Sequence record: EF437941 | DNA from: Escherichia phage Phi1 | Length of the DNA stretch: 64,000 nucleotides | Strand: one strand, 5' to 3' | Shown here: positions 5,891-62,690 of the stretch, piece after piece | Layout: each line of letters begins with the position of its first letter | Numbering within the stretch: the stretch's first letter is position 1 | Notes under the pieces: generated by a model | The model's input: only the letters and a program-made list of their open reading frames with translations | Database searches by the model: none | What the model was told of the DNA's origin: nothing | Program-made: the position numbers and the translations under genes

Positions 5891-6616
5891 TTACTTGAGT
5901 GTGTGGAATTGGCTATGTTTAGTCTCTCGCACCTTGACAGACCCATCGCGTTTGATATAATAGATCAGTGACTTGAGGGTGTCGTGTACATACGCGTGCG
6001 GGAAACGCTCTGGATACTTCTTCCAATCTGGAGTATTAACGATCCAGTCGAAAATCCACCACGGGCAGGAGTAGTAACCACGACCGCCACCGATCAAACA
6101 AATGGTCGGACGGAAACCAGTAAGATCGCAAAATGAATCAGTGTCATGTGCTGGGGAACGATGTTCTGCTTCGTCAGAGAAAATGTTTGCTACCGGAGAT
6201 TTCACTTTAACTTCCGGTGCTTCTTCAACATCTGACTTAACTTCTTCGACCACTTGTTCAACTGCTGGAGATTCTTCTTTTGTTTCTTCAATGACGATCT
6301 CAGGTTCTTTCATTGCTTCACCCAGAGACGGATCAACTTCGTCAAATACTACTTTATCATCTGCGGTATCTGCTGCCAGAATAAGATCGTTAATACTGGT
6401 TCCTTCTGCCGGAGTTTCTTCTTCCATTTCGGAAGCCAGTTTAGTTAATTCGGTTTCTACGAACTCGATCATGTTCTCTAGCGAGAGCGTCTTTTTGACC
6501 TTTATATCAAATTGTTTTGCGTAGTCCGCTAATTCTGTTTTAGCTGTTTTCTGTGCTTCTTTGTCGTCGGACGCCGCAATAGCGCGGAGTTCTTCGAAAT
6601 ATTCTTTATCAAACAT
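5891..6616 (-). CDS. inh: Inh-like protein (putative prohead protease inhibitor) with acidic linker and Hoc-like C-terminal motif
   Basis: Lies between hoc and uvsW as in T4; C-terminal CPWWIFDWIVN...YYIKRDGS resembles the Hoc C-terminus IGWWVFDEIVK; acidic low-complexity middle region. Confidence 0.55.
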   Translation of the reverse strand: MFDKEYFEELRAIAASDDKEAQKTAKTELADYAKQFDIKVKKTLSLENMIEFVETELTKLASEMEEETPAEGTSINDLILAADTADDKVVFDEVDPSLGEAMKEPEIVIEETKEESPAVEQVVEEVKSDVEEAPEVKVKSPVANIFSDEAEHRSPAHDTDSFCDLTGFRPTICLIGGGRGYYSCPWWIFDWIVNTPDWKKYPERFPHAYVHDTLKSLIYYIKRDGSVKVRETKHSQFHTLK

Positions 6617-21002: not shown

Positions 21003-21300
21003 TATCTTTTAAGAACTCATCCCATGAATGGCGGATATTGTTCTTAATTCTCCAGATAAGCGCAGGGATTGAACGCTCTCCCATCTGGAAGTAAGGATCA
21101 TATGATCCGTATGCCCAATATGCTACTACAATTCCACAATCAGCGCAATAATATTCTATTTCACTTGCTGGCGACCAAAGTCCATCAATATGATCGGTGA
21201 TCCTGCTTTCGATGTTATGGCTATGGCAATCAGGGCAACGGATGCAATGACCTTGTTTATCGTAATTTGACGTTAGCGAATACTTAAACAATCTCATCAT
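20968..21300 (-). CDS. zinc-ribbon protein (CxxC...CxxC)
   Basis: CIRCPDCHSH ... YYCADCG Cys pairs; overlaps neighbouring genes at both ends (coupled operon). Confidence 0.5.
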   Translation of the reverse strand: MMRLFKYSLTSNYDKQGHCIRCPDCHSHNIESRITDHIDGLWSPASEIEYYCADCGIVVAYWAYGSYDPYFQMGERSIPALIWRIKNNIRHSWDEFLKDIDLRDDPFRRL

Positions 21301-22013
21301 AGATCCTTATTGGCTTCAAATACTGCCTTTGCGAATCCTCGCGGGGTAAGTGACCTGATAGTCTTTGTTCTGGTTCCTTTCCCGCCTAGCTTAGAATGCT
21401 GTTTACTGTACCCTTTATTAATATGCAACGGTTTCTTTTCTGGCATTATAAAGCCTTGTCCGGTCCATAAGCAAGTCTTTTTCGGGTACATATCACGGGC
21501 GGCAATATACTCAGGAAACGTAGGATGTTTATCATCTTCCGGCAAATAACCGCCATATTCCCACGGATGGAACATGTAATCAGGCTTACGCCACATACTA
21601 GAGATAACGCTTACAGGATTCTCTATCATGTAGGGAACTCCTAGCCATTCACCCAAATAAGCGGTTATTTTAGCTGCCCGTACATCATGAACTTGAATCA
21701 ATGGTCCTTGTTCTCGTTTCTTTCGTTCAAAGTGTGCAGCGCCACTAACAGCTAAATTGGTGCACGGTGGGAATGCAAATATAATATCCGGTTTCCCCCA
21801 TTCAAGGTCCATTGCTCTTTCCAGCCAGTTCAAATCAATCCAGGTGTTTACATAAGTAATGTTTGGATGTTCAAATCTGGTATTATACTTTTTGTATGTA
21901 CCGTGGTCGGCGTCATCCGCATTAAAGCAGACTACCTTATGACCTGCTTTAGCCCATTCTAGCCCCATTATCCCCGATCCGTCAAAGTTGCAGAATATTA
22001 ATTTTTGTTTCAT
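21297..22013 (-). CDS. short C5-cytosine methyltransferase-like protein (putative)
   Basis: FCNFDGSGIMG (motif I-like FxGxG), IIFAFPPCTNLAVSGA (motif IV-like PC catalytic dipeptide), MIENPV (motif VI-like ENV). At 238 aa it is too short to hold a full target-recognition domain. Confidence 0.45.
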   Translation of the reverse strand: MKQKLIFCNFDGSGIMGLEWAKAGHKVVCFNADDADHGTYKKYNTRFEHPNITYVNTWIDLNWLERAMDLEWGKPDIIFAFPPCTNLAVSGAAHFERKKREQGPLIQVHDVRAAKITAYLGEWLGVPYMIENPVSVISSMWRKPDYMFHPWEYGGYLPEDDKHPTFPEYIAARDMYPKKTCLWTGQGFIMPEKKPLHINKGYSKQHSKLGGKGTRTKTIRSLTPRGFAKAVFEANKDL

Positions 22014-44906: not shown

Positions 44907-45881
44907 TTACATCGCTAACAGAGAGTCCAGGTCATCCAGATCAGAAGCGGAGGAAGTACCGCCACCCAGATCCAGCGATGCCATCAGGTCATCAGCGGAA
45001 GAATCTAACGCCGTGCTAGCTGCGTTAATACCAACTACAGTGCTAGCTGCGGTAATACCAGCGTCGAATGCATTCATCTGTGCGTCAAAATCATCAAGCT
45101 GGCTGTTAATCGCTGCCGCAGCACTGGAAGCCGCAGCACCAGCTACCATAGACACACCCATAGTTTTCTTAAATTTGGTTTCCAGTTCATCGAACGGTTT
45201 AAACTGGCTAGGCGCTACAATCTCACTCAGATCAACCATGTTTTCCATCAGGTATTTCTGATATGCTTCGTCTTCAATCTTCGGAAGCTGTGATTGCTGC
45301 ATGACACGAGAATCATCATAGTTGTGGTGTATATCAACCTTCTTAGCTTTCAGGACGAAGTTAGCGCCAGAGAACACACAAGTTACATCTACCGGAACTT
45401 GGCCCATATCGGTATTCACGTTCACCATTGCAACGATCTTATCATAAATTTTCTGACCGAAGCGGAATTTGAATACCTTACCTTCATTTTCTGGTGCTTG
45501 AGGATCTTTCAGTACCAGAATATTTGCGTAGTAGGACGCTTTACGCTTAATCAGTTGCCATTCGGTTTTATCGGTATTGTATAGGTCTTTTTCGTTAATA
45601 TATTTGCACACAGGGCAAGAATCAAAATCACCGTGGGTGCTTGAGCAGTTTTCCCAATACCATTTGCCATTAACTTTGAAGGAATGGTTTACCAGTTTCA
45701 CAATCGGCAGACCGTCTTCTGTCTTAGACGGCAGGAAGCGAATCAGGGCTTCACCGTTACCTGCTGCATCAGTCTTAATCTTCCACTCTTTCGGATCTTC
45801 TTTGGAGAAACCGTTGCCACCTTTCAGTGCGGCCAGTTGAGCTTGCAGTTTGGAGCTATCTTGACGTTTAAACATATTCAC
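44907..45881 (-). CDS. 32: single-stranded DNA-binding protein gp32
   Basis: [51 protein letters not shown]...[16 protein letters not shown]...[30 protein letters not shown] matches T4 gp32; the start may be the second ATG at 45875. Confidence 0.9.
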
Positions 45882-45935
45882 TATTCCTTCTTTTGATTAA
45901 TTTACTAGACTATTATACAGATTTAAATTTACTTG

Positions 45936-46616
45936 TCAACTATTTGTTTCGGCTTTTAATTGAGATATTTCTTTACACTCTTTAACTACTTTAACAAATA
46001 ATGCTCTTGCTTTTGCGGCGTCAATAACAAGTAGTTTCTTGTACGCCTTCATTTTAACACTATAAGTTTGCCAAATCAAGTCTTTGGCTACCTTGTCGTG
46101 TTCGTCGATTATATTTAGAAAGCTATCTAACAACATAAACGACTCAAACGATATAATCCGATTTTGCAGTAGTTTAAATATACCGCTAGTTTCGGTTGCG
46201 GGATTGTATGTAATTAGCTCTTTAAGAGTAACCCCGCGTTTCTCGGAGAAGTATACCAGACTTTTAATGTCATCGTCAAATCTTGTTGCTGCATCGGTTA
46301 TCTTTCCTATGTATTCCATATAAAAGCCGTATGCGTCAACATCAGTGATTTCACCTACCCATGCATCGGTATTAGCTACCAGATTGCTTAGGAATAGGAA
46401 GTATAATTCTCTTAGATTGTACTTTTCCGCTAATTTTGCGAAATAATACTTATCTCTGCGTTTATTGAATGCGGCATCAGACAACCGCATCCTCCAATTG
46501 TATTTTACGCAATCATAACGCCCGTTCATGTGAGCTTTCATCATGCAATATAACATATACACAGATTTAGCATTAATTCGCATATCTGGATCTGGAGGAA
46601 GACGGTTTCTGATCAT
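45936..46616 (-). CDS. 59: helicase loader gp59
   Basis: GRYDCVKYNWRMRLSDAAFNKRRDKYYFAKL...NLVANTDAWVGEI...LLQNRIISFESFMLLDSFLNIIDEHDK matches T4 gp59. Confidence 0.9.
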   Translation of the reverse strand: MIRNRLPPDPDMRINAKSVYMLYCMMKAHMNGRYDCVKYNWRMRLSDAAFNKRRDKYYFAKLAEKYNLRELYFLFLSNLVANTDAWVGEITDVDAYGFYMEYIGKITDAATRFDDDIKSLVYFSEKRGVTLKELITYNPATETSGIFKLLQNRIISFESFMLLDSFLNIIDEHDKVAKDLIWQTYSVKMKAYKKLLVIDAAKARALFVKVVKECKEISQLKAETNS

Positions 46617-46625
46617 ACATACCCC

Positions 46626-46895
46626 TTAAATATCGAGAGTGTTGGTCGGTTCGTCGATCACTCCCTTCCTGAGCGTTCTATTTACTATACATTCTTGTGT
46701 GATCTTGTCAATAATGGACACCGGAATATACTTCTGATAGTGACCATATTCTATAGAGTTTTCCTCTACAAACTGAGTTGTCGCTTCAAGATAAGTCAAT
46801 CCCTCTTCAACAACCAATTTTTCGATTGCAAGACCGTTTGCTGTTTTGTTCGCGGCTTTTACCGCATGTTCATTAAGCATTGAACACCCGATCAT
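46626..46895 (-). CDS. 33: gp33-like late transcription accessory protein (by synteny)
   Basis: Small ORF in the T4 position of gene 33 (32-59-33-dsbA-rnh); sequence match not verified from memory; alternative starts at 46880 or 46873. Confidence 0.45.
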   Translation of the reverse strand: MIGCSMLNEHAVKAANKTANGLAIEKLVVEEGLTYLEATTQFVEENSIEYGHYQKYIPVSIIDKITQECIVNRTLRKGVIDEPTNTLDI

Positions 46896-47148
46896 AGAGT
46901 TCTACCGCTTCGTCGCGTTCTGCTTCGAAGGTTTCGCGCTGTTGCTGGTGATACAGTTTAAACAGAATGCCCCACATTTTACCATCTACGCCTAATTCTT
47001 CTTTAGCACGCTGTTTGATCTCTTTGATCTTATCGCCATATGCTTCTTGAATGGTTTTCTGATCGCTGGCTTCTTTAATCAGTTGTGCCAGGGTATTTCC
47101 GTGCACTGCTTCGTCAAATACTACTTTTTCTTTTTTCTGTTCAGTCAT
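46873..47148 (-). CDS. dsbA: DsbA-like dsDNA-binding protein (by synteny)
   Basis: 91 aa (T4 DsbA is 89 aa), in the T4 dsbA position upstream of gp33. Confidence 0.45.
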   Translation of the reverse strand: MTEQKKEKVVFDEAVHGNTLAQLIKEASDQKTIQEAYGDKIKEIKQRAKEELGVDGKMWGILFKLYHQQQRETFEAERDEAVELYDRVFNA

Positions 47149-47152
47149 AATA

Positions 47153-47752
47153 TTAACCCTCTTTAGTCATTAATTGAAAACCACGTTCAGCTTTTGAGAT
47201 TTCGCTAGGACTTAAATCGTCACCCACATATTCTAGCATCATTTCTCGGATAATGTCAAGTGCTTTTTCATCACCTGATTTTAACTCGAACTCAAGTTCA
47301 TAATGAGCAGTGTCGCCCAATCCTTCGCCTACTTTGCCATAATAGAAAGTGTCTTTGCACATTTCCACTATACCACAACCCATATCTAGAGTCAATGACT
47401 TTCGATATGTCATTACTTGCATTATTGTAGTGATATAGTCGGAGTTTACCCCTAGACTATCAATAAAATGGACGAACTCATCCCAGTTTGAAAATGTCAT
47501 TTCATCGCGGTTGAATAGTCCAGATTCATTATCACCCATTTTGATCATGATCTCTGATTTTCTACAGTCAAGTCGTGCATAAATTCCTTTTTGACGTAGA
47601 GCATGATCTTCGGTATCATAATAAAATTCGTGTTTTAATATGTTATCTCGATCGACGATATTATAACCGTCATACATTGCCACCCACAAATCACAGATGG
47701 TTTCGACGCCAATTTGTGAGTGTGCATAGTATTTTAACTCAAGTTCTTTCAT
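47153..47752 (-). CDS. CYTH-domain protein (CyaB/ThTPase-like triphosphate tunnel metalloenzyme), putative
   Basis: N-terminal KELELKYY (the ExExK motif) and C-terminal YELEFELK acidic strand motif typical of CYTH domains; 199 aa. Confidence 0.45.
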   Translation of the reverse strand: MKELELKYYAHSQIGVETICDLWVAMYDGYNIVDRDNILKHEFYYDTEDHALRQKGIYARLDCRKSEIMIKMGDNESGLFNRDEMTFSNWDEFVHFIDSLGVNSDYITTIMQVMTYRKSLTLDMGCGIVEMCKDTFYYGKVGEGLGDTAHYELEFELKSGDEKALDIIREMMLEYVGDDLSPSEISKAERGFQLMTKEG

Positions 47753-48964: not shown

Positions 48965-51900
48965 ATGGCAGATTTTTCTCAACATTTCAAGGCCACATTT
49001 GGCTTTGACGCTGGTAATGAAAAGGTCGTCAATGTAGCATTGGCTGATAAGAATGTCAACACCGATGCGGTCAACGTTGAATTTTTCAATTACCATAATG
49101 GTATTACTCAGTATGACACAACTCGCGGTTATGATCAATACGGAACTACAATCTATCAAAACCGTCCGTATTATGCAAAAGAAGATATCACAAAGCCAGC
49201 AGGTGATTTTGACCCGACTAAATGGCAAGCACTGCGCACGGACCCACGTTGGGATTATATTGCAGCAACTTCCGGTGATACTCCTTTACAGTCTGGTGAT
49301 TATATCGCAGCAGATGGTCAATTTGCAAACTTGACTTTCTCTATGCCAACTAAACCAGCAGAGGGAGACACTATAACAGTAAAAGATATCGGTGGCAAGT
49401 GTGGTGTTAACGAATTATCGTTCTTGAGTTCAGGACATGAGTTTTACCATAACGGTAATGTGTATAACCGAAAATGGTATTGTACTACCCCGTATGCAAT
49501 GAACTATTTCATCTTTGTTCGTAATCGTTGGCATGTTTATCAGACAGGAACAGAGCCACGCGGTGTGTACGCACAGCCAGCGATTGATGCTATTCAAATG
49601 CAGAATGGTGATCAGGTATTTCGTCGTAGTTCATTGGGTAATATTACCTTAGTGCTTCCTAAGTTTGCCAACAATGGCGACATGATCCAGACTACAGACC
49701 TTGACGGATTAACCGCAACCAACCACGTTACGGTTAAAGTTCATGAGCACGCAGAAGAACAATCAATTGGCACGTCCGGTCTAAAAGAGATTATCGGTAA
49801 GCGTAGCGGTCATGGTGTATTCATCTTTGACAAGACGGAAAACTTATGGCGTTTGTGGGATGGTGATCAGTCTGTTCGTCTTAAACCGATCATCGATGAC
49901 ACTCGCTTGCAACCTAATAGCTATGTTGCTGTATTTGGTGATCGTGATGTTACTCTGACGCTGCCGACCAATGTCGAGCCGGGTGATCGTATTCAAGTTT
50001 CTATGCAGTATATGCACGGAAACCAGAATTGCCGTATTATCACCGCCACAGAGGATACAAAAATCCTTATGTCGAAAAACATGGTTCAGTTGCCGAAGCG
50101 TAGCGAGTACCCATTCAATGGGACCGATACATGGAAGGAAGTGTCTGAATTGTCGTTCAATGCGGCTAGTGATTATGTACCTTATCTGGAGTTCTCTTAT
50201 TCAGAAGGTGATGATGGTAAGAAACATTGGCTGGTAGCACACTCTCATCCGATCGTCGAACGAGTAGACCCTACTCGTAAAGAGCGTGTGGGTGTAATTG
50301 CACTGGCTACCCAAACTGAAACGAATAAAAACCATGAAGAGAATCCTAGCGACGAAGTTGCAGTAACACCAAAAATGCTGGCTAATAAAACCGCCAACGA
50401 AACTCGACGCGGTATTGCTCGCATTGCGACTCAAGCGGAAACGCATCAAGATACTGGTTCTAACTTCCTGGATGATGTTATCGTTACGCCTAAAAAGTTA
50501 AATGACTGTGTTGCTACCGAAGCCCGTCGTGGTGTGATGGAAATTGCAACCCAGCACGAAACCAATGAAGGTTTAGACGATACCCGCGCTATTACTCCTA
50601 AGAAATTAGAAGAACGTCGCGCTTCCGAAGATCTCGCTGGTATTGCTGAAATTGTTCAGGTTGGCGGTAGTGCTGCCGCTCGACGCGGCGAAGCTGGTAC
50701 AGGGATCTATAACATCAATGACCATGCTAAAATTGTTACGCCAAAAAACATCAACGAAGTCAAGGCGACCGAAACTTCCCGTGGTGTTGGCTATCTGGCA
50801 ACTGACGCGGAAGTGCAAGGGGCTACAGAATCAACCCCGCAAGATGCTTTACTAATCACGACTCGCACGCTAACGAAACGTACTGCTACCGAATCGCGCA
50901 CTGGTATCGCTGAAATTGCAACTCAGGAAGAAACAAACTTAGGTCAAAGTGATAACCATATCATCACGCCTAAAAAGCTGCATACTCGCCGTGCAACGGA
51001 AACTTTACACGGTTTAGCAGAAATTGCAACTCAGCCGGAATTTGACGCAGGTCTTGACGATGCTCGCATTTCTACCCCATTGAAGATTAAAACCTTCTTT
51101 GAGAATGCACAGCGTTTGAAAGTAGATCCGACTCAGGGGCTTAACCTTACTGGTGATTTGTGGCAAGGTATCATGATCCGCGGTCTGGACGCAACCGAAG
51201 ACACAAAAGGTGTCGCTAAAGTTGCTACTACTCAGCTTACGGATGCTGGTCAAGATGATACTACAATCATCACGCCTAAAAAGCTGCAAGGCAAAAAGGC
51301 CACAGAAGGTAAAGAAGGTATTATCCGAGTTGGTACTCAAGCCGAAACCGTGGCTGGTACACTGGCTAATGTAGCAATTTCTCCGAAGAACTTCAAATAT
51401 GTTGTTCAGACAGAGGATACATGGAAAGCAACCGAAGCGCGTCGTGGATTCTTGAAAGTTGCTACTCAGGAAAACTGTTTTGTTGGTGATAATCTGCAAG
51501 GTTCTACTCAAGAACTAGGAAACTACCAGCATGACGGAATTGCTGTTACCCCGAAAGGATTAAACTACGCACTTGCTAATTTCTTACCTAAGATGGCAAC
51601 CGCTCAGAATAGTTTGAAATTAGGTAACGTAGAGGCCGCTAAATGGGCGCGTAGAGACATTGACCAGACCATAGAGAGCAATTACACGTTTAATAAAAAC
51701 GTTAACGTGAAGGGCGATTTAGAGTGCTTAAAATCAGGTTCCTTTGAAACTCTGTATGTGACTAAGAACTCTACTGATGATCCGAGTAATGGTCATCTGG
51801 TGTTGGGTGAGCGTGGAGTTGACGGTCACACCGGAATTACTCTGCATGGCACAACCGCATCGGAAGGCATGAAAAACTCCTGGTCTATTATCGTTGGTGG

Positions 51901-52705
51901 TACTGGAACGGCGCAAGCAGTTAATAGTGGCGCTATCGCTTTCGGTCAAATCAATGATGGTGGAGTCGTCGAGCATTACGCCTTTGCTATGGAACACACT
52001 GGCGACGCGACAGCATATAGAAACTTTATGGCAGGTCGTAACCTGTATGCAAAACAAGGCGGTTTATACATTGTTGACCTGTCTAATCCGGCAATGACTC
52101 GTTCCTCAGATGGTATGCTGAATATCGGTCACGGTGGAAGTGTTAACATCAAGGCAGGTTATCAGAATCTGACTACAGAGATCGCCGGACAGAAATATCA
52201 GATCGTACACACAGGAAACGCTGACGAAGTTCTTAACCGTCAGTTTGTTAAGAATGCTGGCGATACAATGGTCGGTAAGCTGACTATGGATAATGCGCCT
52301 ATTGTTTCTGTTAAGCATGAAGCTAGCGCGGCAACCGCCCCGGCAATCGGTAACATCGGTTTCTGGAATATGCGAGTTACTACCCAGAACATCAAAGAAA
52401 CTTATCCAGAGAAGAAAAACGGTACTCTGATGCAATGGGGTACTGACGCGGACGGGCTTACCCAGCTTTGGTCCCCTGATGGTACTCATAAACATTATAT
52501 CCGTTCCGGTACTGGTGGTCAATGGACCGCATGGGGTGAAATTTACACCAAACAGAACAAACCTACCGCCCAGGAAATCGGGGCAGTAGTTGCAGAAGGT
52601 GGTTTAATGAACTCTATGACGGTGCGTGACTGGATCAAGGTTGGTAATGTTAAAATCATCGCCAATAATCTGACTCGTACCGTAGACTTTATCTGGGAAG
52701 ACTAA
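48965..52705 (+). CDS. 34: long tail fibre proximal subunit gp34
   Basis: From ATG 48965: MADFSQHFKATFGFDAGNEKVVNVALADKNVNTDAVNVEFF parallels T4 gp34 MAEIKREFRAEDGLDAGGDKIINVALADRTVGTDGVNVDYL; about 1246 aa. Confidence 0.9.
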   Translation: MADFSQHFKATFGFDAGNEKVVNVALADKNVNTDAVNVEFFNYHNGITQYDTTRGYDQYGTTIYQNRPYYAKEDITKPAGDFDPTKWQALRTDPRWDYIAATSGDTPLQSGDYIAADGQFANLTFSMPTKPAEGDTITVKDIGGKCGVNELSFLSSGHEFYHNGNVYNRKWYCTTPYAMNYFIFVRNRWHVYQTGTEPRGVYAQPAIDAIQMQNGDQVFRRSSLGNITLVLPKFANNGDMIQTTDLDGLTATNHVTVKVHEHAEEQSIGTSGLKEIIGKRSGHGVFIFDKTENLWRLWDGDQSVRLKPIIDDTRLQPNSYVAVFGDRDVTLTLPTNVEPGDRIQVSMQYMHGNQNCRIITATEDTKILMSKNMVQLPKRSEYPFNGTDTWKEVSELSFNAASDYVPYLEFSYSEGDDGKKHWLVAHSHPIVERVDPTRKERVGVIALATQTETNKNHEENPSDEVAVTPKMLANKTANETRRGIARIATQAETHQDTGSNFLDDVIVTPKKLNDCVATEARRGVMEIATQHETNEGLDDTRAITPKKLEERRASEDLAGIAEIVQVGGSAAARRGEAGTGIYNINDHAKIVTPKNINEVKATETSRGVGYLATDAEVQGATESTPQDALLITTRTLTKRTATESRTGIAEIATQEETNLGQSDNHIITPKKLHTRRATETLHGLAEIATQPEFDAGLDDARISTPLKIKTFFENAQRLKVDPTQGLNLTGDLWQGIMIRGLDATEDTKGVAKVATTQLTDAGQDDTTIITPKKLQGKKATEGKEGIIRVGTQAETVAGTLANVAISPKNFKYVVQTEDTWKATEARRGFLKVATQENCFVGDNLQGSTQELGNYQHDGIAVTPKGLNYALANFLPKMATAQNSLKLGNVEAAKWARRDIDQTIESNYTFNKNVNVKGDLECLKSGSFETLYVTKNSTDDPSNGHLVLGERGVDGHTGITLHGTTASEGMKNSWSIIVGGTGTAQAVNSGAIAFGQINDGGVVEHYAFAMEHTGDATAYRNFMAGRNLYAKQGGLYIVDLSNPAMTRSSDGMLNIGHGGSVNIKAGYQNLTTEIAGQKYQIVHTGNADEVLNRQFVKNAGDTMVGKLTMDNAPIVSVKHEASAATAPAIGNIGFWNMRVTTQNIKETYPEKKNGTLMQWGTDADGLTQLWSPDGTHKHYIRSGTGGQWTAWGEIYTKQNKPTAQEIGAVVAEGGLMNSMTVRDWIKVGNVKIIANNLTRTVDFIWED

Positions 52706-52739: not shown

Positions 52740-53879
52740 ATGACACAAGAGATAGAATTACGCAACACTGGAATTAGGTTTGCGCATTTCGACGAAGACT
52801 CTGCGACATTTACCAGCATTTCAGAAAATAACTCTGTGATGTATAAGCTGGAAGTGCGCGGATCTAATGCGGATTCTACCAAACCAGCAAGAATTAGATT
52901 TAATGGAGTGGAGATTGTTGGCACTGGCTATGAAAATGGCCTAAATTTTAAAGTTCTTACTCCAACTGGACAATTACACGAAGAAAAGGTATTCTATGGT
53001 CGCGGTGCTGTTTTGGCAATGCGTGATTATCTTTCTTTGCTGAAAGGTGACTATATCATTGCGATGGCAACGCATGGAGAATTGTTTGCAGATCCGATAA
53101 GTGATGATGTATTTTCTAAGCTGGGATCTGTATCATTCCCGAATCACATTTTGTTACAGCAAATGCCTCGTGTATCATATGCAGCAATTTATTCTACTAA
53201 AATGGGTAAAATTGTGTGCGAAGGTATGCAAGCGACCCACGGGGAAGGACAAGATTCATCTATACAAATTGAGAAAGTCTATGATACTATAGATGATCTT
53301 GCTATAACAGGAACACCACAACGATTTTTAGATTATCCGGTTGAGTATGTGAGCGAAGATGCCGAACATTTCGAGCTAATACAATGGCCTCACGATGAGA
53401 TCAGCGCCCCACTTGAGGATTTTAACATAAAGGCAGGTGACAAACTATCAATATCCTTTGAATTGTTCCGTGATAGTGCCGCAGCCGCAGCCAACGTAAC
53501 AGCGCGTTTCTATCACAACTACTTCACCGATGGACAATATCAAACTGGTGTTCGATACAATGCCAGCAAAAAAGACCAATGGGAAAAGTTTGAAGCCGTC
53601 TATACCGTACCGGAAGGAGTTGATAGTGTAGTAACTGGTTGTATCAGATATCCAACCAACTCCAATGAAGGTATTGTTAAAATTAGAAACATACTAATAA
53701 CGCCGATCAGTGGAGTCGTCAAAACTACTGGTCCTACTTCATTTGGTGTTAATGGTGTTAGAACAACTCATATTCAGGATAACGGTGATTTTACTAACCC
53801 TGTAATGAGTCTTCTTAAACTACCCAGAGATAATAAACACATCACATCCAACAACTTTAAAGAGTTTGATGTTGATTAA
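52740..53879 (+). CDS. 35: long tail fibre hinge protein gp35 (by synteny and size)
   Basis: 379 aa between gp34 and gp36 (T4 gp35 is 372 aa); sequence not verified from memory. Confidence 0.55.
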   Translation: MTQEIELRNTGIRFAHFDEDSATFTSISENNSVMYKLEVRGSNADSTKPARIRFNGVEIVGTGYENGLNFKVLTPTGQLHEEKVFYGRGAVLAMRDYLSLLKGDYIIAMATHGELFADPISDDVFSKLGSVSFPNHILLQQMPRVSYAAIYSTKMGKIVCEGMQATHGEGQDSSIQIEKVYDTIDDLAITGTPQRFLDYPVEYVSEDAEHFELIQWPHDEISAPLEDFNIKAGDKLSISFELFRDSAAAAANVTARFYHNYFTDGQYQTGVRYNASKKDQWEKFEAVYTVPEGVDSVVTGCIRYPTNSNEGIVKIRNILITPISGVVKTTGPTSFGVNGVRTTHIQDNGDFTNPVMSLLKLPRDNKHITSNNFKEFDVD

Positions 53880-54040: not shown

Positions 54041-54048
54041 TATAAATA
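54041..54048 (+). promoter_or_regulatory. T4-type late promoter (TATAAATA) for gene 36
   Basis: Exact TATAAATA 33 nt upstream of the gp36 ATG. Confidence 0.5.
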
Positions 54049-55642: not shown

Positions 55643-58585
55643 ATGGCAGATTTAAGCAGAATCCAATTTAAACGCACTAGCACTAAAGGTCGTAAACCTG
55701 ATGCTAGTACGATGAATCCGGGGGAATTGGCAATCAACCTTGCGGATCAATATCTTCTTACTAAAAATGATTCCGGTGCTATTATCAATTTAAGTTGTCC
55801 TCCGGTTTATGACCGCGATGTTACAATGGCGGGTAAGGTTAAAGGTAATAATTATATCTTAAGTAAAACCGCCAACTATCTGGAAGATCAGACAGCGCGA
55901 GATCTTAATTACTTTGGTGCTTTCCGAACTAATGGACAAGATGGTCTTTTAGATCTAACTCTTAATGTTCCTCATTCTGCTGGCGTTAATCATGGTCGAG
56001 GATTTACTTTCCGTTATGCGACTGGCGGATCTCGTGTTGAAACCTATGGGTATAATGCACAGGGACAAAAAGCATTTAGCTATAAAATGTATCATGAAGG
56101 TGATAAACCTACCCCATCGGAATTGAACGTTTATAGCAAACAAGAAGTTGACCGTATGTTTGTTAAAACCGTTAAACTTGCTACAGTTCCTGTTGATATC
56201 GTTGACGGTTATTTTAAATTAGCAACTGCAATGATTCCGCAAAACGGTCGTAGTGTATTTTTCCGTATTCATGGTGGTAACGGATATAACGTTACTGCAT
56301 ACGATCAAGTTGATATTGTAGAAATTGTTATTCGCAGTGGAAATAATCGTCCTAAAGGTGTTAACGTTATTGCATACCGCCGAAATACAAACAAAGCATT
56401 TGATGTTTTGGCTGTTAATACTTCGGGTGATAACTATGATATCTACGTGAAATATCAGCGTTACACTGATAACGTTATTGTTGAATTTGGTAAAAGTGTT
56501 GATGTTGATCTGGTGGTTCATGACGTTCCAGACTTTGTTGTTGATCGTCCTGTTGGCGATAATGTTATTGGCGGTCGCGCGGTAACTCTTTTCAACACCG
56601 AAAACAAACGAGGTGTGTTGAGTTTTGACGATAACACACAAAATAGTTATGATATTGTTCACTTGAGTAATGATAGGGGTACTGGACGGAAATATATTCG
56701 TAAATTCCGTAGCAACTATAACGAAATGATCTGGCATGAGACGGTTCAAGGTTCTACTTATCGACTCGCCACGGGTAGTACAGATGCCCAGGAGATTCTA
56801 TCCGTTGAATCTAGTAGCTCTATTGCTGGGACTCATAAAGGTAATATTCTTTCTGGTCGAATGATGTTGGGTGGTGGTAGTAATGTTATTACCTTGCGGC
56901 GTCCTGCTGGTCAATCCAACCATATTACGTTTCAAGATAATCGGACTGGATCTATTACCCGTCAAGGGTGGATCGGTTATGGTAATGCTGATACTAACGT
57001 TTTTGAATGGTATAGTGATGTGGGTGGTAGTTCTATTCGTCACCACATCGACGGACAGATCGAATTTCAGACAGGTAACACAAAACGAGTTTATACTAAC
57101 GCTCAATTCATCTCAATGAATAGCGACGCCTACCGAATGCTCTACGGTAATTACGGTGCATTCTGGCGTAATGACGGCGTTAAAGTTTATCTTCTTTCTA
57201 CTGCCGAAAATGATAAATTGGGCGGGTGGAATGCCTATCGTCCATTCATTTATGATTTAACTTCCGGTAACGTTCAATTAGGCGGTGATGGTAACGAAGA
57301 TGCATTAACGTTAGAACGTGCTTCTCGTGCCGCTCGATTTAGTAATGACGTTTACATTAAGAAAGGGCATTTGACTTTCGACGCTGGGCGATTAAATTCC
57401 CGCGATTATTTCCGGTTTAACCATTGGGGTGATAGCAATAACGCGCGTGATAACATCTTACAGCTTGACGATAGCATGGGTGCACACTTCACCACTGAAC
57501 GTACTTTAGCAACTGGTGCAATTAAAACTAAATTCTTCGGTAATTTGGAATCTGCTGGTCAAATTAAATGGGGTAAAGGGACCGCCACATCTACGTTTAC
57601 TCTACGTGTATGGGGTAGCGATAGCCGTAAACAAATATTTGAATGCGGCGATGAAAGCGGGTGGCATTGGTATACCCAACGCGCGGGCGGTCCGGATACT
57701 TCTGCAATTGAGTTTGCCATCAACGGTACTCTTAGGCCGCAAGCAATTACCACTGGCGGTAATATTATTTTGGGCGGTTCTGATATTGATTTTCGTCGCA
57801 CTGGTAATAAGCATATCTGGTTTAGAGATCCGAACGGTTTAGAGTTAGGCTTGATGTACTGCGATGATGCTGGTGTTATTCGCTTCCGTGGTCAGAAACA
57901 AGCTCAGGCGTGGAAATTTGCAGATAAAATGATCCAGTTGGAATCTGGCACTGTATCCGGTGGCGGTAATGGCCTGATTCGTGGTGAAGTTGCTGGCGGT
58001 AGTTGGGCTAGCTGGCGTGACCGTCCTGCTGGTCTTATGGTTGGGTGTCCTCAATCCGTTGACTCGGCACATAACGTATGGAAAGCGACGCATTGGGGTA
58101 AATATCACATTGCAGCAATGGGTGTACATGTTCCTAGTGGTACTATTACCAATGCTTTAGCTCGCCTAAACGTTCATGACGCCAACTTTGACTTTAGCGC
58201 CTCCGGTGATATGACGATAGGTCGTAACGGTTCGTTTAACGATGTTTACATTCGTTCTGATGCTCGCCTTAAAATCAATAAGGAAGAGTATAAAGAGAAT
58301 GCCACAGATAAAGTTAATCGCTTGACGGTATACACCTATGACAAGGTTAAATCTTTAACCGACCGTACTGTCATTGCTCATGAAGTTGGTATTATTGCTC
58401 AGGATCTTGAAAAAGAATTGCCGGAAGCCGTAACAACTTCTAAGATCGGCGACCCAGATAATCCAGAAGAGATCTTAACAATTTCTAACTCTGCTGTCAA
58501 CGCTCTTTTAATTAAGGCGTTTCAGGAAATGAGCGAAGAATTGAAAGCCGTTAAAGCTGAACTAGCGGAACTTAAAAAGAATTAA
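55643..58585 (+). CDS. 37: long tail fibre distal subunit gp37 with C-terminal intramolecular-chaperone-like domain
   Basis: MADLSRIQFKRTSTKGRKPDASTMNPGELAINLADQ matches T4 gp37 [36 protein letters not shown]; the C-terminal ~110 aa (VYIRSDARLKINKEEYK...NALLIKAFQEMSEELKAVKAEL) looks like a self-cleaving tail-spike chaperone domain. Confidence 0.85.
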   Translation: MADLSRIQFKRTSTKGRKPDASTMNPGELAINLADQYLLTKNDSGAIINLSCPPVYDRDVTMAGKVKGNNYILSKTANYLEDQTARDLNYFGAFRTNGQDGLLDLTLNVPHSAGVNHGRGFTFRYATGGSRVETYGYNAQGQKAFSYKMYHEGDKPTPSELNVYSKQEVDRMFVKTVKLATVPVDIVDGYFKLATAMIPQNGRSVFFRIHGGNGYNVTAYDQVDIVEIVIRSGNNRPKGVNVIAYRRNTNKAFDVLAVNTSGDNYDIYVKYQRYTDNVIVEFGKSVDVDLVVHDVPDFVVDRPVGDNVIGGRAVTLFNTENKRGVLSFDDNTQNSYDIVHLSNDRGTGRKYIRKFRSNYNEMIWHETVQGSTYRLATGSTDAQEILSVESSSSIAGTHKGNILSGRMMLGGGSNVITLRRPAGQSNHITFQDNRTGSITRQGWIGYGNADTNVFEWYSDVGGSSIRHHIDGQIEFQTGNTKRVYTNAQFISMNSDAYRMLYGNYGAFWRNDGVKVYLLSTAENDKLGGWNAYRPFIYDLTSGNVQLGGDGNEDALTLERASRAARFSNDVYIKKGHLTFDAGRLNSRDYFRFNHWGDSNNARDNILQLDDSMGAHFTTERTLATGAIKTKFFGNLESAGQIKWGKGTATSTFTLRVWGSDSRKQIFECGDESGWHWYTQRAGGPDTSAIEFAINGTLRPQAITTGGNIILGGSDIDFRRTGNKHIWFRDPNGLELGLMYCDDAGVIRFRGQKQAQAWKFADKMIQLESGTVSGGGNGLIRGEVAGGSWASWRDRPAGLMVGCPQSVDSAHNVWKATHWGKYHIAAMGVHVPSGTITNALARLNVHDANFDFSASGDMTIGRNGSFNDVYIRSDARLKINKEEYKENATDKVNRLTVYTYDKVKSLTDRTVIAHEVGIIAQDLEKELPEAVTTSKIGDPDNPEEILTISNSAVNALLIKAFQEMSEELKAVKAELAELKKN

Positions 58586-58626
58586 GGAAAACTCCCAGGG
58601 AAGGGAACTACTAAGGAGAAACGGCT

Positions 58627-58866
58627 ATGGTCTATAATATCGTCATTGGTGCTTTGTCTAATTTCGGAATGAAATTATTGTCAAAGTTAATTAGTGAAAA
58701 GATGCTCACTAAAATTTTCTTCTATTGCGCTCGTCGTCTTGCGGCTTATACCAATACGCCAATTGATGATCGTTTTGTGGAAGAACTTTATAAGGAGTTT
58801 AATAAAAATCAGTCAGAAGATAGTAACGAGCAAGATAAACCTAGTGATAGTCAACTACCTAAATAA
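58627..58866 (+). CDS. hypothetical protein (79 aa) in the position of T4 gene 38
   Basis: ORF between gp37 and holin t; no resemblance to T4 gp38 recognised. Confidence 0.45.
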   Translation: MVYNIVIGALSNFGMKLLSKLISEKMLTKIFFYCARRLAAYTNTPIDDRFVEELYKEFNKNQSEDSNEQDKPSDSQLPK

Positions 58867-59562: not shown

Positions 59563-59593
59563 GGGGAAGCCTTTCGGCCTCCCCTTCTTTTTA
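59563..59593 (+). terminator. terminator hairpin between the convergent holin t and minus-strand genes
   Basis: GGGGAAGCC-tttc-GGCCTCCCC (one mismatch) followed by TTCTTTTTATT. Confidence 0.5.
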
Positions 59594-59839
59594 TTGACGC
59601 ATAGAAGCCCCTGAATCACATTTTGACGCTGTATGATGAAAACAGGTAGCGTACCAGTCATCGGCTTGTTTGTCTTCGTCAGAAAACGCGTAATTTCGTT
59701 GTATGCCGTTTTCTACTTTGACCAGTGCAATGGCTGTTTCTGGAAGATCGATCAATCGTACAAAATCACCATCTTCCCACTCTACACGAGCAATATCATA
59801 ACCCATCTCAAAATAAACAATCGCTTGTTCTAATTTCAT
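59591..59839 (-). CDS. hypothetical protein (82 aa)
   Basis: ORF; overlaps the upstream gene's stop. Confidence 0.5.
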   Translation of the reverse strand: MKLEQAIVYFEMGYDIARVEWEDGDFVRLIDLPETAIALVKVENGIQRNYAFSDEDKQADDWYATCFHHTASKCDSGASMRQ

Positions 59840-61544: not shown

Positions 61545-61625
61545 GTCAACAACTTATTTTCGGTTGTACTTGTCAACAACTTATTTTCGGTTGTACTTGT
61601 CAACAACTTATTTTCGGTTGTACTT
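61545..61625. repeat. perfect tandem direct repeat, 3 x 27 bp (gtcaacaacttattttcggttgtactt)
   Basis: Three identical head-to-tail copies at 61545-61571, 61572-61598 and 61599-61625; each holds a minus-strand GTTGTTGAC -35-like element. Confidence 0.85.
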
Positions 61626-61889
61626 CTGCCACTTTCGGTAATACTGCTTGTAATATTGTTTAATGTTTGGTGGTTCGTCACTATACATGTTATCAACCAT
61701 CATGTCAATAAGACCTTCCGGTGTTTGATAGTTACCCGCTCGAATGAGTTCCTTAATCAAAAGATCTTGTGTCGCTTTATACTTGACAATAACAACTGTC
61801 TTTTCTGCCTTTCCAATTCCGATCCGGTCGTTAGCTCTCATAGCATCCCACCAATCTTTTTTAAACTTCATGTTGTTAAATTTCATCAT
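61608..61889 (-). CDS. hypothetical basic protein (93 aa)
   Basis: ORF whose 3' end overlaps the third repeat unit. Confidence 0.45.
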   Translation of the reverse strand: MMKFNNMKFKKDWWDAMRANDRIGIGKAEKTVVIVKYKATQDLLIKELIRAGNYQTPEGLIDMMVDNMYSDEPPNIKQYYKQYYRKWQKYNRK

Positions 61890-62690
61890 TTAACCCTTCT
61901 TATATTCGCAAACATATTGAGTACCATAATCATAGCTAATGCGACCTTTCTCGATTACTTCAAAGCGGATTTCATCGTTTTCCCCTACCCACATTTTGTA
62001 CTCGTTGAAGTATCCTGCTACATCCGGTTTGCTCATACCAACAACCATATTTTTATATTGTTTGCTGTGTGTCAGATTTGATTTAAACACTTCGCGCTCA
62101 TCAACATATACGAAAGAAGACAATTCACCTTCGGTCATGGTCATTTTCAGCTTGCCGCCCTTGTTGCCATAAGTAGAGTTGCCATACAATGGATCTTTGC
62201 GGCTGTCTGTTTCAATACCATCAATGATTTTCCATGTAAATTTTGCAATGCACTGATAAGTGATAGATCCAGAGATTTTCTCTTCTTTCTTCTGTTCTTC
62301 CACCACTTTTGCTTCGTGTTTCGGTTGTTCTTCTTCAACCTTCACAGAAGTCTCTGAATCGCTTTCTGACGCGGTTTCTTCTTTAGGTAATACATTCATC
62401 AAGTTTTGGATTTGAGCGTTGTATACAGCCTCCAGTGGCTGAATCTGCCCGATATTGATCATTGTATCACGAACAGTTTTATTCCAGTTGCGTTGCTCTT
62501 GTTTAAGAGACGGATCAATCTTAACAGCCTTAACATATACCTCATGAAGTTTAGAATCAAGTGCTGAGATTGACTCATTAGCACAAATAAACTTCTCTGA
62601 TTTGGTAGTAGCTTTAGCGCAATCAAAGGACGCAGCATTAGCACCGAAAGTAGTAGCAGAAAGAACGATAGCAGCGATAATGTTTTTCAT
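61890..62690 (-). CDS. secreted protein with LprI/DUF1311-like N-terminal domain (putative)
   Basis: Signal peptide MKNIIAAIVLSATTFGANA; then FDCAKATTKSEKFICANESISALDSKLHEVYVKAV...QRNW resembling the DUF1311 two-Cys motif; acidic linker; C-terminal beta-rich domain. Confidence 0.5.
   Translation of the reverse strand: MKNIIAAIVLSATTFGANAASFDCAKATTKSEKFICANESISALDSKLHEVYVKAVKIDPSLKQEQRNWNKTVRDTMINIGQIQPLEAVYNAQIQNLMNVLPKEETASESDSETSVKVEEEQPKHEAKVVEEQKKEEKISGSITYQCIAKFTWKIIDGIETDSRKDPLYGNSTYGNKGGKLKMTMTEGELSSFVYVDEREVFKSNLTHSKQYKNMVVGMSKPDVAGYFNEYKMWVGENDEIRFEVIEKGRISYDYGTQYVCEYKKG

Follow-up and report, generated by a model that had tools for sequence, protein, structure and literature searches.

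The long tail fibre tip of Escherichia phage Phi1: a C-terminal chaperone domain on gp37 that very probably works together with a distantly encoded gp38

The long tail fibre genes of Escherichia phage Phi1 (sequence record EF437941) lie within a stretch of 64,000 nucleotides, hereafter the window, in the order g34-g35-g36-g37, and are followed by a gene for a protein of 79 residues (orf79, known as Dc5 in phage RB49) and by the holin gene t, all on the same strand (Table 1). Here we examine three connected elements of this locus: the C-terminal end of gp37, which forms the distal fibre subunit; the location of gene 38 (g38), which in T2/T6/S16-type phages encodes the adhesin at the fibre tip; and orf79, the sole open reading frame (ORF) between g37 and t. 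In S16, T2 and fPS-90, g38 is found directly between g37 and t, whereas in RB49, ECD7, Ec_Makalu_003 and other close relatives of Phi1 it is distant, and the canonical order does not occur here. The window is that of an RB49-like coliphage of the genus Krischvirus. It shares the order g34-g35-g36-g37-Dc5-t with RB49 (in which gp37, Dc5 and g38 are RB49p251, RB49p252/253 and RB49p079), and its g37-t stretch has a nucleotide identity of 95% with Ec_Makalu_003 and ECD7 and of 89% with RB49, three phages that are likewise Krischvirus. The differences from the RB49/Krischvirus fibre are allelic changes only, the distal half of gp37 being mosaic among relatives.

Table 1. Features of the Phi1 fibre tip locus in window coordinates, with two loci of phage kvi given in the coordinates of their own sequence extracts
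Feature	Position	Strand	Basis or remark
g34	48965-52705	+	
g35	52740-53879	+	
TATAAATA, T4-type late-promoter consensus upstream of g36	54041..54048	+	pattern search
g36, small distal fibre subunit, 496 residues	54082..55572	+	PHROG 16472, full-length match; RB49 synteny
g37, long tail fibre distal subunit precursor, 980 residues	55643..58585	+	ORF; PHROG 1699 'long tail fiber protein distal subunit', E 3e-197
Codons D867-V-Y-I-R871, predicted new C-terminus of mature gp37 and predicted docking strand for the gp38 N-terminal domain	58241..58255	+	same as fPS-phage site
Intramolecular chaperone (Peptidase_S74) domain, gp37 residues 872-980	58256..58582	+	PF13884 match, solved-chain profile matches, invariant motif
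Ser872 codon	58256-58258	+	first base = 58256
Lys877 codon	58271-58273	+	
AAGGAG ribosome-binding site of orf79	58613..58618	+	8 nucleotides upstream of the ATG; read from sequence
orf79 (Dc5 in RB49), 79 residues, putative small lysis factor of the PM2 P18/gp l family, not a fibre component	58627..58866	+	PHROG 402, E 5.6e-20
Gene t, T4-type holin, 218 residues	58900..59556	+	Pfam Phage_holin_T, E 4.5e-61; PHROG 860 holin, E 5e-88
kvi g38	extract L018 4314-5093		adjoins g37
kvi distal syntenic locus, empty site	extract L019 6719-6781		61-bp gap between flanking genes, no g38

A preliminary description of this DNA had likened the last ~110 residues of gp37 to an intramolecular chaperone, and that observation is confirmed. 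The C-terminal peptide it quoted is, letter for letter, the true C-terminus of the 980-residue ORF, and residues 872-980 constitute an S74 intramolecular chaperone (IMC) domain, an assignment that we consider solid. A Pfam scan placed PF13884 (Peptidase_S74, 'Chaperone of endosialidase') on residues 872-931, covering profile positions 1-58 of 58, and this match, which is the check that the description had itself named, reached an E-value of 1.2e-11 and, at 45.1 bits, lay above the curated cut-off of 22. The domain lies at the extreme C-terminus of a trimeric distal fibre subunit. The conserved serine in an SD.R.K context that had also been anticipated is present: the cleavage-site motif reads NDVYIR^S872-D-A-R-L-K877, with isoleucine following (SDARLKI; the caret marks the scissile bond), and Ser872 and Lys877 stand in the i, i+5 spacing within SDxRxK.

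A homologue search with the 127-residue C-terminus of gp37 returned 18 fragmentary near-relatives, and diversity was drawn from phage records instead. The alignment and profile built from these comprised 13 diverse C-terminal domains, taken from fibres of Krischvirus, two Tequatroviruses, the T5-like Epseptimavirus (pb1), Drexlerviridae (lateral fibre) and a Klebsiella phage, from Streptococcus PblB, and from the Aeromonas phages Aeh1 and 44RR2.8t, the second represented by its gp12. Ser872, Asp873, Arg875 and Lys877 are invariant in all 13. Compared with chains of solved structure, the profile matched S16 gp37 (6F45_A, E 8e-21), the myelin regulatory factor MYRF (7DC3_A, E 3.5e-10) and the GA-1 neck appendage chaperone (3GUD_A, E 0.0035), and gave a weak match to a phage L-shaped tail fibre (8HQZ_d, E 0.048). 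Residue 1 of 3GUD_A, which is the released GA-1 chaperone, aligns with Ser872. The Phi1 domain shares 98% amino acid identity with that of RB49, 66% with its counterpart in the Tequatrovirus fPS-90, and ~30% with that of S16.

By homology and from the literature on related fibres, Ser872 is predicted to serve as both the cleavage site and the nucleophile in autoproteolysis of the R871-S872 bond, which would yield a mature gp37 of 871 residues and a released chaperone of 109. In S16, gp37 is cut at DLNVS^SDRRIKK, and its last 113 residues are an autocleaved IMC (Salem et al. 2021, PMC7917993). The same work aligns the S16 cut with DVYIR^SDGRLKI of the fPS phages, in which the DVYIR strands make up the face that takes in the tryptophan prongs carried by the N-terminal domain of gp38 (PMC7917993). 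The residues preceding the cut are DLNVS in S16 but DVYIR in Phi1, and the Phi1 sequence NDVYIR^SD is found unchanged in fPS-90, kvi and BCPSen_003, all three of which have an adjacent gp38. Proteolytic processing of gp37 is also documented for T2 and T6 (PMC3157838). The chaperone domains of the K1F endosialidase endoNF, the GA-1 neck appendage, T5 pb1 and MYRF belong to the same Pfam family, have the serine and lysine at i, i+5 within SDxRxK, and likewise form the C-terminal end of a trimeric beta-helical fibre or spike. The difference is that cleavage in those proteins serves only to bring the fibre or spike to maturity, in T5 by exposing the receptor-binding tip, whereas in Phi1 it is predicted to expose a docking site for a second protein.

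Beyond g37 itself, no gp38 was recovered from the window. A tblastn search with RB49 gp38 against all 64 kb gave no match (best E-value 5), and a six-frame scan of the window for glycine-rich ORFs returned fibre and baseplate proteins only. Two candidates for a hidden gp38, at 5891-6616 and 21297-22013 (both on the minus strand), were rejected, neither having a Pfam or PDB match to GP38. In relatives of Phi1 the gene is found elsewhere. RB49p079 is the displaced g38 of RB49 (45367-46143, minus strand, 258 residues) and matches both Pfam models of this adhesin family, GP38 (PF05268) with an E-value of 7e-72 and Gp38_N (PF21721) with an E-value of 6e-18; its displacement was published in 2011 (PMC3157838). 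Of the 30 closest records, at least 22 carry g38, as found by tblastn, at a distal locus that is ~105 kb away from g37, for instance Ec_Makalu_003 (g38 at 45283-46059, g37 at 150346) and ECD7 (g38 at 46728-47501, g37 at 153372). In GEC-3S, g38 lies at 45.7 kb, and on that genome the window runs from ~95.8 kb to ~159.1 kb. The distal locus of the relatives accordingly maps ~50 kb before the start of the window, on the strand opposite to g37, and for this reason g38 could not be seen in the preliminary description.

The alternative placement of g38 is found in phage kvi (MN850615), which belongs to the species Krischvirus RB49. Its gene order is g37-g38-Dc5-t, its g38 product matches GP38 with an E-value of 1.5e-69, and its distal syntenic locus is an empty site. 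A metagenomic contig (L011) has the equivalent order of IMC, GP38, orf79 homologue and holin T. Among the genomes checked of this one species-level taxon, g38 is either beside g37 (kvi) or distal (RB49 and Ec_Makalu_003), never both, and it behaves as a movable cassette. The gp38 of kvi is 68% identical to that of RB49 and resembles that of Tequatrovirus fPS-90 at its N-terminus, which suggests that the g37 tip and g38 were gained as a module by recombination. RB49, Ec_Makalu_003, kvi and fPS-90 all have a gp38 that keeps the N-terminal sequence GW(V/I)GSS...ETGQRWMS. As to the surroundings of the displaced gene, a terminator-like hairpin, GCCCCTTAATTGGGGC, followed by a T-run lies directly upstream of g38 in RB49 (46144-46200), no TATAAATA late promoter stands immediately upstream of the displaced g38 in RB49, and Ec_Makalu_003 has an annotated terminator after g38.

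orf79 is a real gene, since an AAGGAG ribosome-binding site precedes its ATG by 8 nucleotides and its product is 95-99% conserved across Krischvirus (96% identity to RB49, 98.7% to kvi Dc5). Homologues that are 61-91% identical to it carry the precomputed family PF26925, 'Phage_PM2_Gpl'. Alignment of the orf79 family profile with gp l of phage PM2 by hhalign gave a probability of 86% and an E-value of 5e-6 over 40 columns; pairwise BLAST of the two proteins was not significant (E 0.42), and a Pfam scan of orf79, run with a Pfam version that does not contain PF26925, returned sub-threshold noise only (DUF1287, TPR_LAA1_C). Homologues of the PM2 lysis protein P18 have been reported in Felix O1 and RB49 (Krupovic and Bamford 2007, PMC1950889). 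According to the work of Krupovic (2007) as cited in PMC9502842, P18 is needed for disruption of the outer membrane at lysis, a finding made there for PM2 P18 only. Both P18 (gp l, gene XVIII, PF26925) and orf79 are small helical proteins with conserved E, A and D positions and are encoded beside lysis genes; orf79 differs in having an extra acidic C-terminal tail of ~25 residues. Two other assignments were rejected: orf79 as a classical holin or membrane protein, the maximal Kyte-Doolittle mean over 19 residues being 1.31 with no clear transmembrane segment, and orf79 as a T4 rIII-like antiholin, for which there was no family match.

The gene neighbourhood of orf79 is consistent with its kinship to P18. 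Its homologues adjoin a holin or endolysin gene in four lineages: orf79 lies upstream of the holin gene t in Phi1, in kvi and on contig L011, the Kolesnikvirus homologue lies just before a 'putative holin', and that of Vibrio phage 1.036.O directly follows a GH108 endolysin gene, away from the fibre genes. In Felixounavirus the homologue ends the fibre block and is followed by a small ORF. The Felix O1-type fibre encoded upstream of the homologue has gp37_trimer and gp37_C domains and no S74 domain, and a link between orf79 and S74-bearing fibres was ruled out on this ground. orf79 is a PM2 P18-like gene that belongs with the holin, and a part in lysis may be expected of its product by homology and from the PM2 literature. 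This part may be auxiliary or redundant, because RB49 has T4-type spanins (PMC6139136) and PM2 has none. The preliminary description had the g38 slot held by an unrelated 79-residue ORF; the slot is indeed without g38, but orf79 is no occupant of it, sitting between g38 and t in kvi and on contig L011. Since kvi has the order g37-g38-Dc5-t without a distal copy of g38, orf79 is a resident gene and does not substitute for gp38.

These observations very probably describe a standard long tail fibre tip of the T2/T6/S16 type, in an RB49-like coliphage whose g38 has moved elsewhere in the genome. By analogy with S16, T2 and RB49, gp37 would be synthesised as a 980-residue precursor in which the last 109 residues (S872-N980), the Peptidase_S74 chaperone, drive trimerisation and folding of the preceding beta-structured tip. 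The chaperone would then remove itself in a trimerisation-dependent manner, by autoproteolysis of the R871-S872 bond with a Ser872/Lys877 dyad. The newly created C-terminal strands (...NDVYIR) would form the docking surface for the Trp-bearing N-terminal domain of one separate gp38 adhesin of ~258 residues, the gene for which, if placed as in the rest of the clade, would lie ~105 kb from g37 on the opposite strand, outside the 64-kb window. Contact with the receptor would be made by gp38, as it is in RB49 with OmpA and some O antigens. The S16 tip (6F45) and the T2/T6-type fibres share with this scheme a C-terminal S74 IMC removed at ...^SDxRxK, as predicted here, and a gp38 that docks on the new gp37 end by its Trp-bearing N-terminal domain and carries a polyglycine-rich receptor-binding domain, an arrangement that Phi1 probably shares. 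The same tip is that of 'the vast majority' of T-even-like phages (PMC9569957).

Several points weigh against this reading. The g38 of Phi1 itself has not been seen, the expected locus being outside the window, and experimental cleavage data for a Krischvirus gp37 were not found in the literature examined. AlphaFold2 monomer models of the gp37 C-terminus are of low confidence (pLDDT 44 for residues 760-980 and 59 for residues 866-980), and a Foldseek search of the PDB with the model of residues 866-980 gave no match with an E-value below 0.1, only spurious PadR-type matches. The poor models are attributable to an obligate intertwined trimer and a shallow alignment; the long C-terminal helix predicted in the low-confidence monomer model is compatible with the IMC fold, in which a helix/beta domain ends in a trimeric coiled coil. 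That the cleavage is predicted and the models are poor would also suit a domain that persists on the mature fibre as a non-cleaving relic. This we regard as barely conceivable, given that the catalytic serine and lysine and the whole motif are invariant, that the domain keeps its 66% identity to that of fPS-90, that the homologous S16 domain is autocleaved (PMC7917993) and T2/T6 gp37 is processed (PMC3157838), and that removal of the domain is required for docking of gp38.

A further point against concerns the ~110 residues preceding the IMC, which have homologues in the tips of two other fibres, T5-like pb1 and the lateral fibres of Drexlerviridae. Residues ~760-871 of gp37 (57920-58255) are 35-41% identical to these tips and 58-60% identical to some Tequatrovirus gp37 proteins, and are unrelated to other T2-like tips; a mosaic junction lies only a few residues ahead of DVYIR. 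Among the neighbouring genes checked for T5-like and Drexlerviridae fibres, those adjacent downstream are not of the GP38 family. Together with the lack of any gp38 in the 64-kb window, this similarity could be taken to mean that the IMC replaces gp38, in a phage that has no gp38 at all and binds its receptor by the cleaved gp37 tip, as does pb1 of the T5 L-shaped fibre. Such an arrangement is hardly credible: the closest relatives checked, amounting to 22 or more of 30 records, have a GP38/Gp38_N gene either at the conserved distal locus or beside g37; Phi1 gp37 keeps the DVYIR docking strand, whereas T5-like and Drexlerviridae fibres lack it and read ...STSDIRLK; and RB49 host-range mutants carry their substitutions (E230K/Y231S) in gp38 (Efimov et al., PMC9569957). 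A milder form, in which the gp37 tip keeps a receptor-binding site of its own, possibly for glycans, and the fibre has two binding modules, this tip and gp38, is speculative and improbable. If true, it could help explain how RB49-like phages manage to recognise OmpA and several unrelated O antigens through a single small adhesin, which is a published puzzle. It could also be supposed that orf79 functionally fills the g38 slot as a fibre accessory, whether by assisting assembly or by serving as a novel small adhesin, as it stands directly downstream of a tail fibre gene in Krischvirus and in Felixounavirus/Kolesnikvirus and is probably co-transcribed with g36-g37, there being no late promoter between them. 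This is very unlikely, because kvi and contig L011 have both orf79 and, next to it, g38, because an S74 domain is lacking from the Felix O1-type fibre encoded upstream of a homologue, because the Vibrio phage 1.036.O homologue is apart from fibre genes, because a holin or putative holin gene follows in Krischvirus, kvi, contig L011 and Kolesnikvirus, and because its family, PF26925, is named for PM2, a phage without tail fibres in which P18 is a lysis factor.

Comparison with T4 clarifies what is and what is not particular to the Phi1 tip. The proximal fibre module (g34-g36 and the N-terminus of gp37) is homologous in the two phages, and holin gene t lies downstream in both. Of gp37 domains, the Pfam scan of the Phi1 protein found Gp34_trimer and Peptidase_S74 only, and not gp37_C (PF12604), which the same scan detected in the Felix O1-type fibre. 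T4 gp37 is not known to have an IMC. In T4 the C-terminal needle of gp37 itself binds the receptor, and gp37 is assembled with the chaperones gp38 and gp57A; this gp38 is unrelated to the adhesin, acts in trans and does not form part of the virion. The proposal that fibre-tip maturation in Phi1 is unlike that of T4 stands. The preliminary description had, however, spoken of T4 gp38 as a 'chaperone/adhesin', which merges two unrelated proteins, T4 gp38 being a chaperone and not an adhesin. Its suggestion that the IMC is an alternative to gp38 does not survive either, since tips of the T2/T6/S16 type cleave off the IMC and then receive gp38 (PMC7917993, PMC9569957), and in Krischvirus the IMC works together with gp38, not instead of it. 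Nor is a new receptor-binding arrangement called for, as gp38 is kept in the lineage, with a distal g38 in RB49, ECD7 and Ec_Makalu_003 (PMC3157838). On the whole, its interpretation is partly supported.

Everything essential in this account is already in the literature, the Phi1 tip being a textbook example of the T2/S16 type, with g38 relocated in the way known from RB49, and current understanding is unchanged by these results. Explicit treatments of the phage group are those of Trojet et al. and Efimov et al. (PMC9569957), the latter describing the self-cleaving chaperone of RB49 gp37 and gp38 as the receptor-binding protein. The value of the present analysis lies mainly in annotation. The absence of gp38 beside g37 in a T-even-like phage does not mean the absence of an adhesin, and an S74 domain on gp37 predicts a gp38-type adhesin somewhere in the genome. 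For Krischvirus therapy candidates, host-range prediction and fibre engineering should seek the receptor-binding determinant ~105 kb from the fibre genes, and the fitting annotation for the Dc5 gene beside g37 is that of a PM2 P18-like lysis factor, not of a fibre protein.

Several minor features of the fibre genes and their surroundings were also recorded. Residues 473-537 of gp37 (57059-57253) match Gp34_trimer (PF21446, E 1.6e-25) and the T4 gp34 structures 4UXE and 5NXF, and this gp34-like trimerisation domain points to module sharing between proximal and distal fibre subunits. The short tail fibre protein gp12 of Aeromonas phage 44RR2.8t ends in an S74 chaperone domain with the motif SDRRLK (extract L014, 362-736); because the domain also terminates gp12 of this T4-like phage, it appears to move between fibre types. 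A pattern search for the late-promoter consensus TATAAATA placed the nearest site upstream of g37, orf79 and t at 54041 and found none between these genes, and for this reason g36-g37-orf79-t would be co-transcribed. Beyond t, an ORF of 82 residues (59591-59839, minus strand) matches PF11195, 'Tad2-like' (Thoeris anti-defence 2-like), with an E-value of 3.4e-6 and a score of 27.9 bits, the cut-off being 25. The L011 homologue of this ORF has a weak Tad2-like match too, and the ORF is possibly an anti-defence gene. A perfect tandem repeat of three 27-bp units, GTCAACAACTTATTTTCGGTTGTACTT, occupies 61545-61625, in and just upstream of the end of an ORF at 61608-61889 (minus strand). Finally, an ORF of 266 residues at 61890-62690 (minus strand) combines a signal-peptide-like N-terminus with a domain of the LprI (lysozyme inhibitor) family, matched with an E-value of 2e-5 and 25.3 bits where the cut-off is 22.

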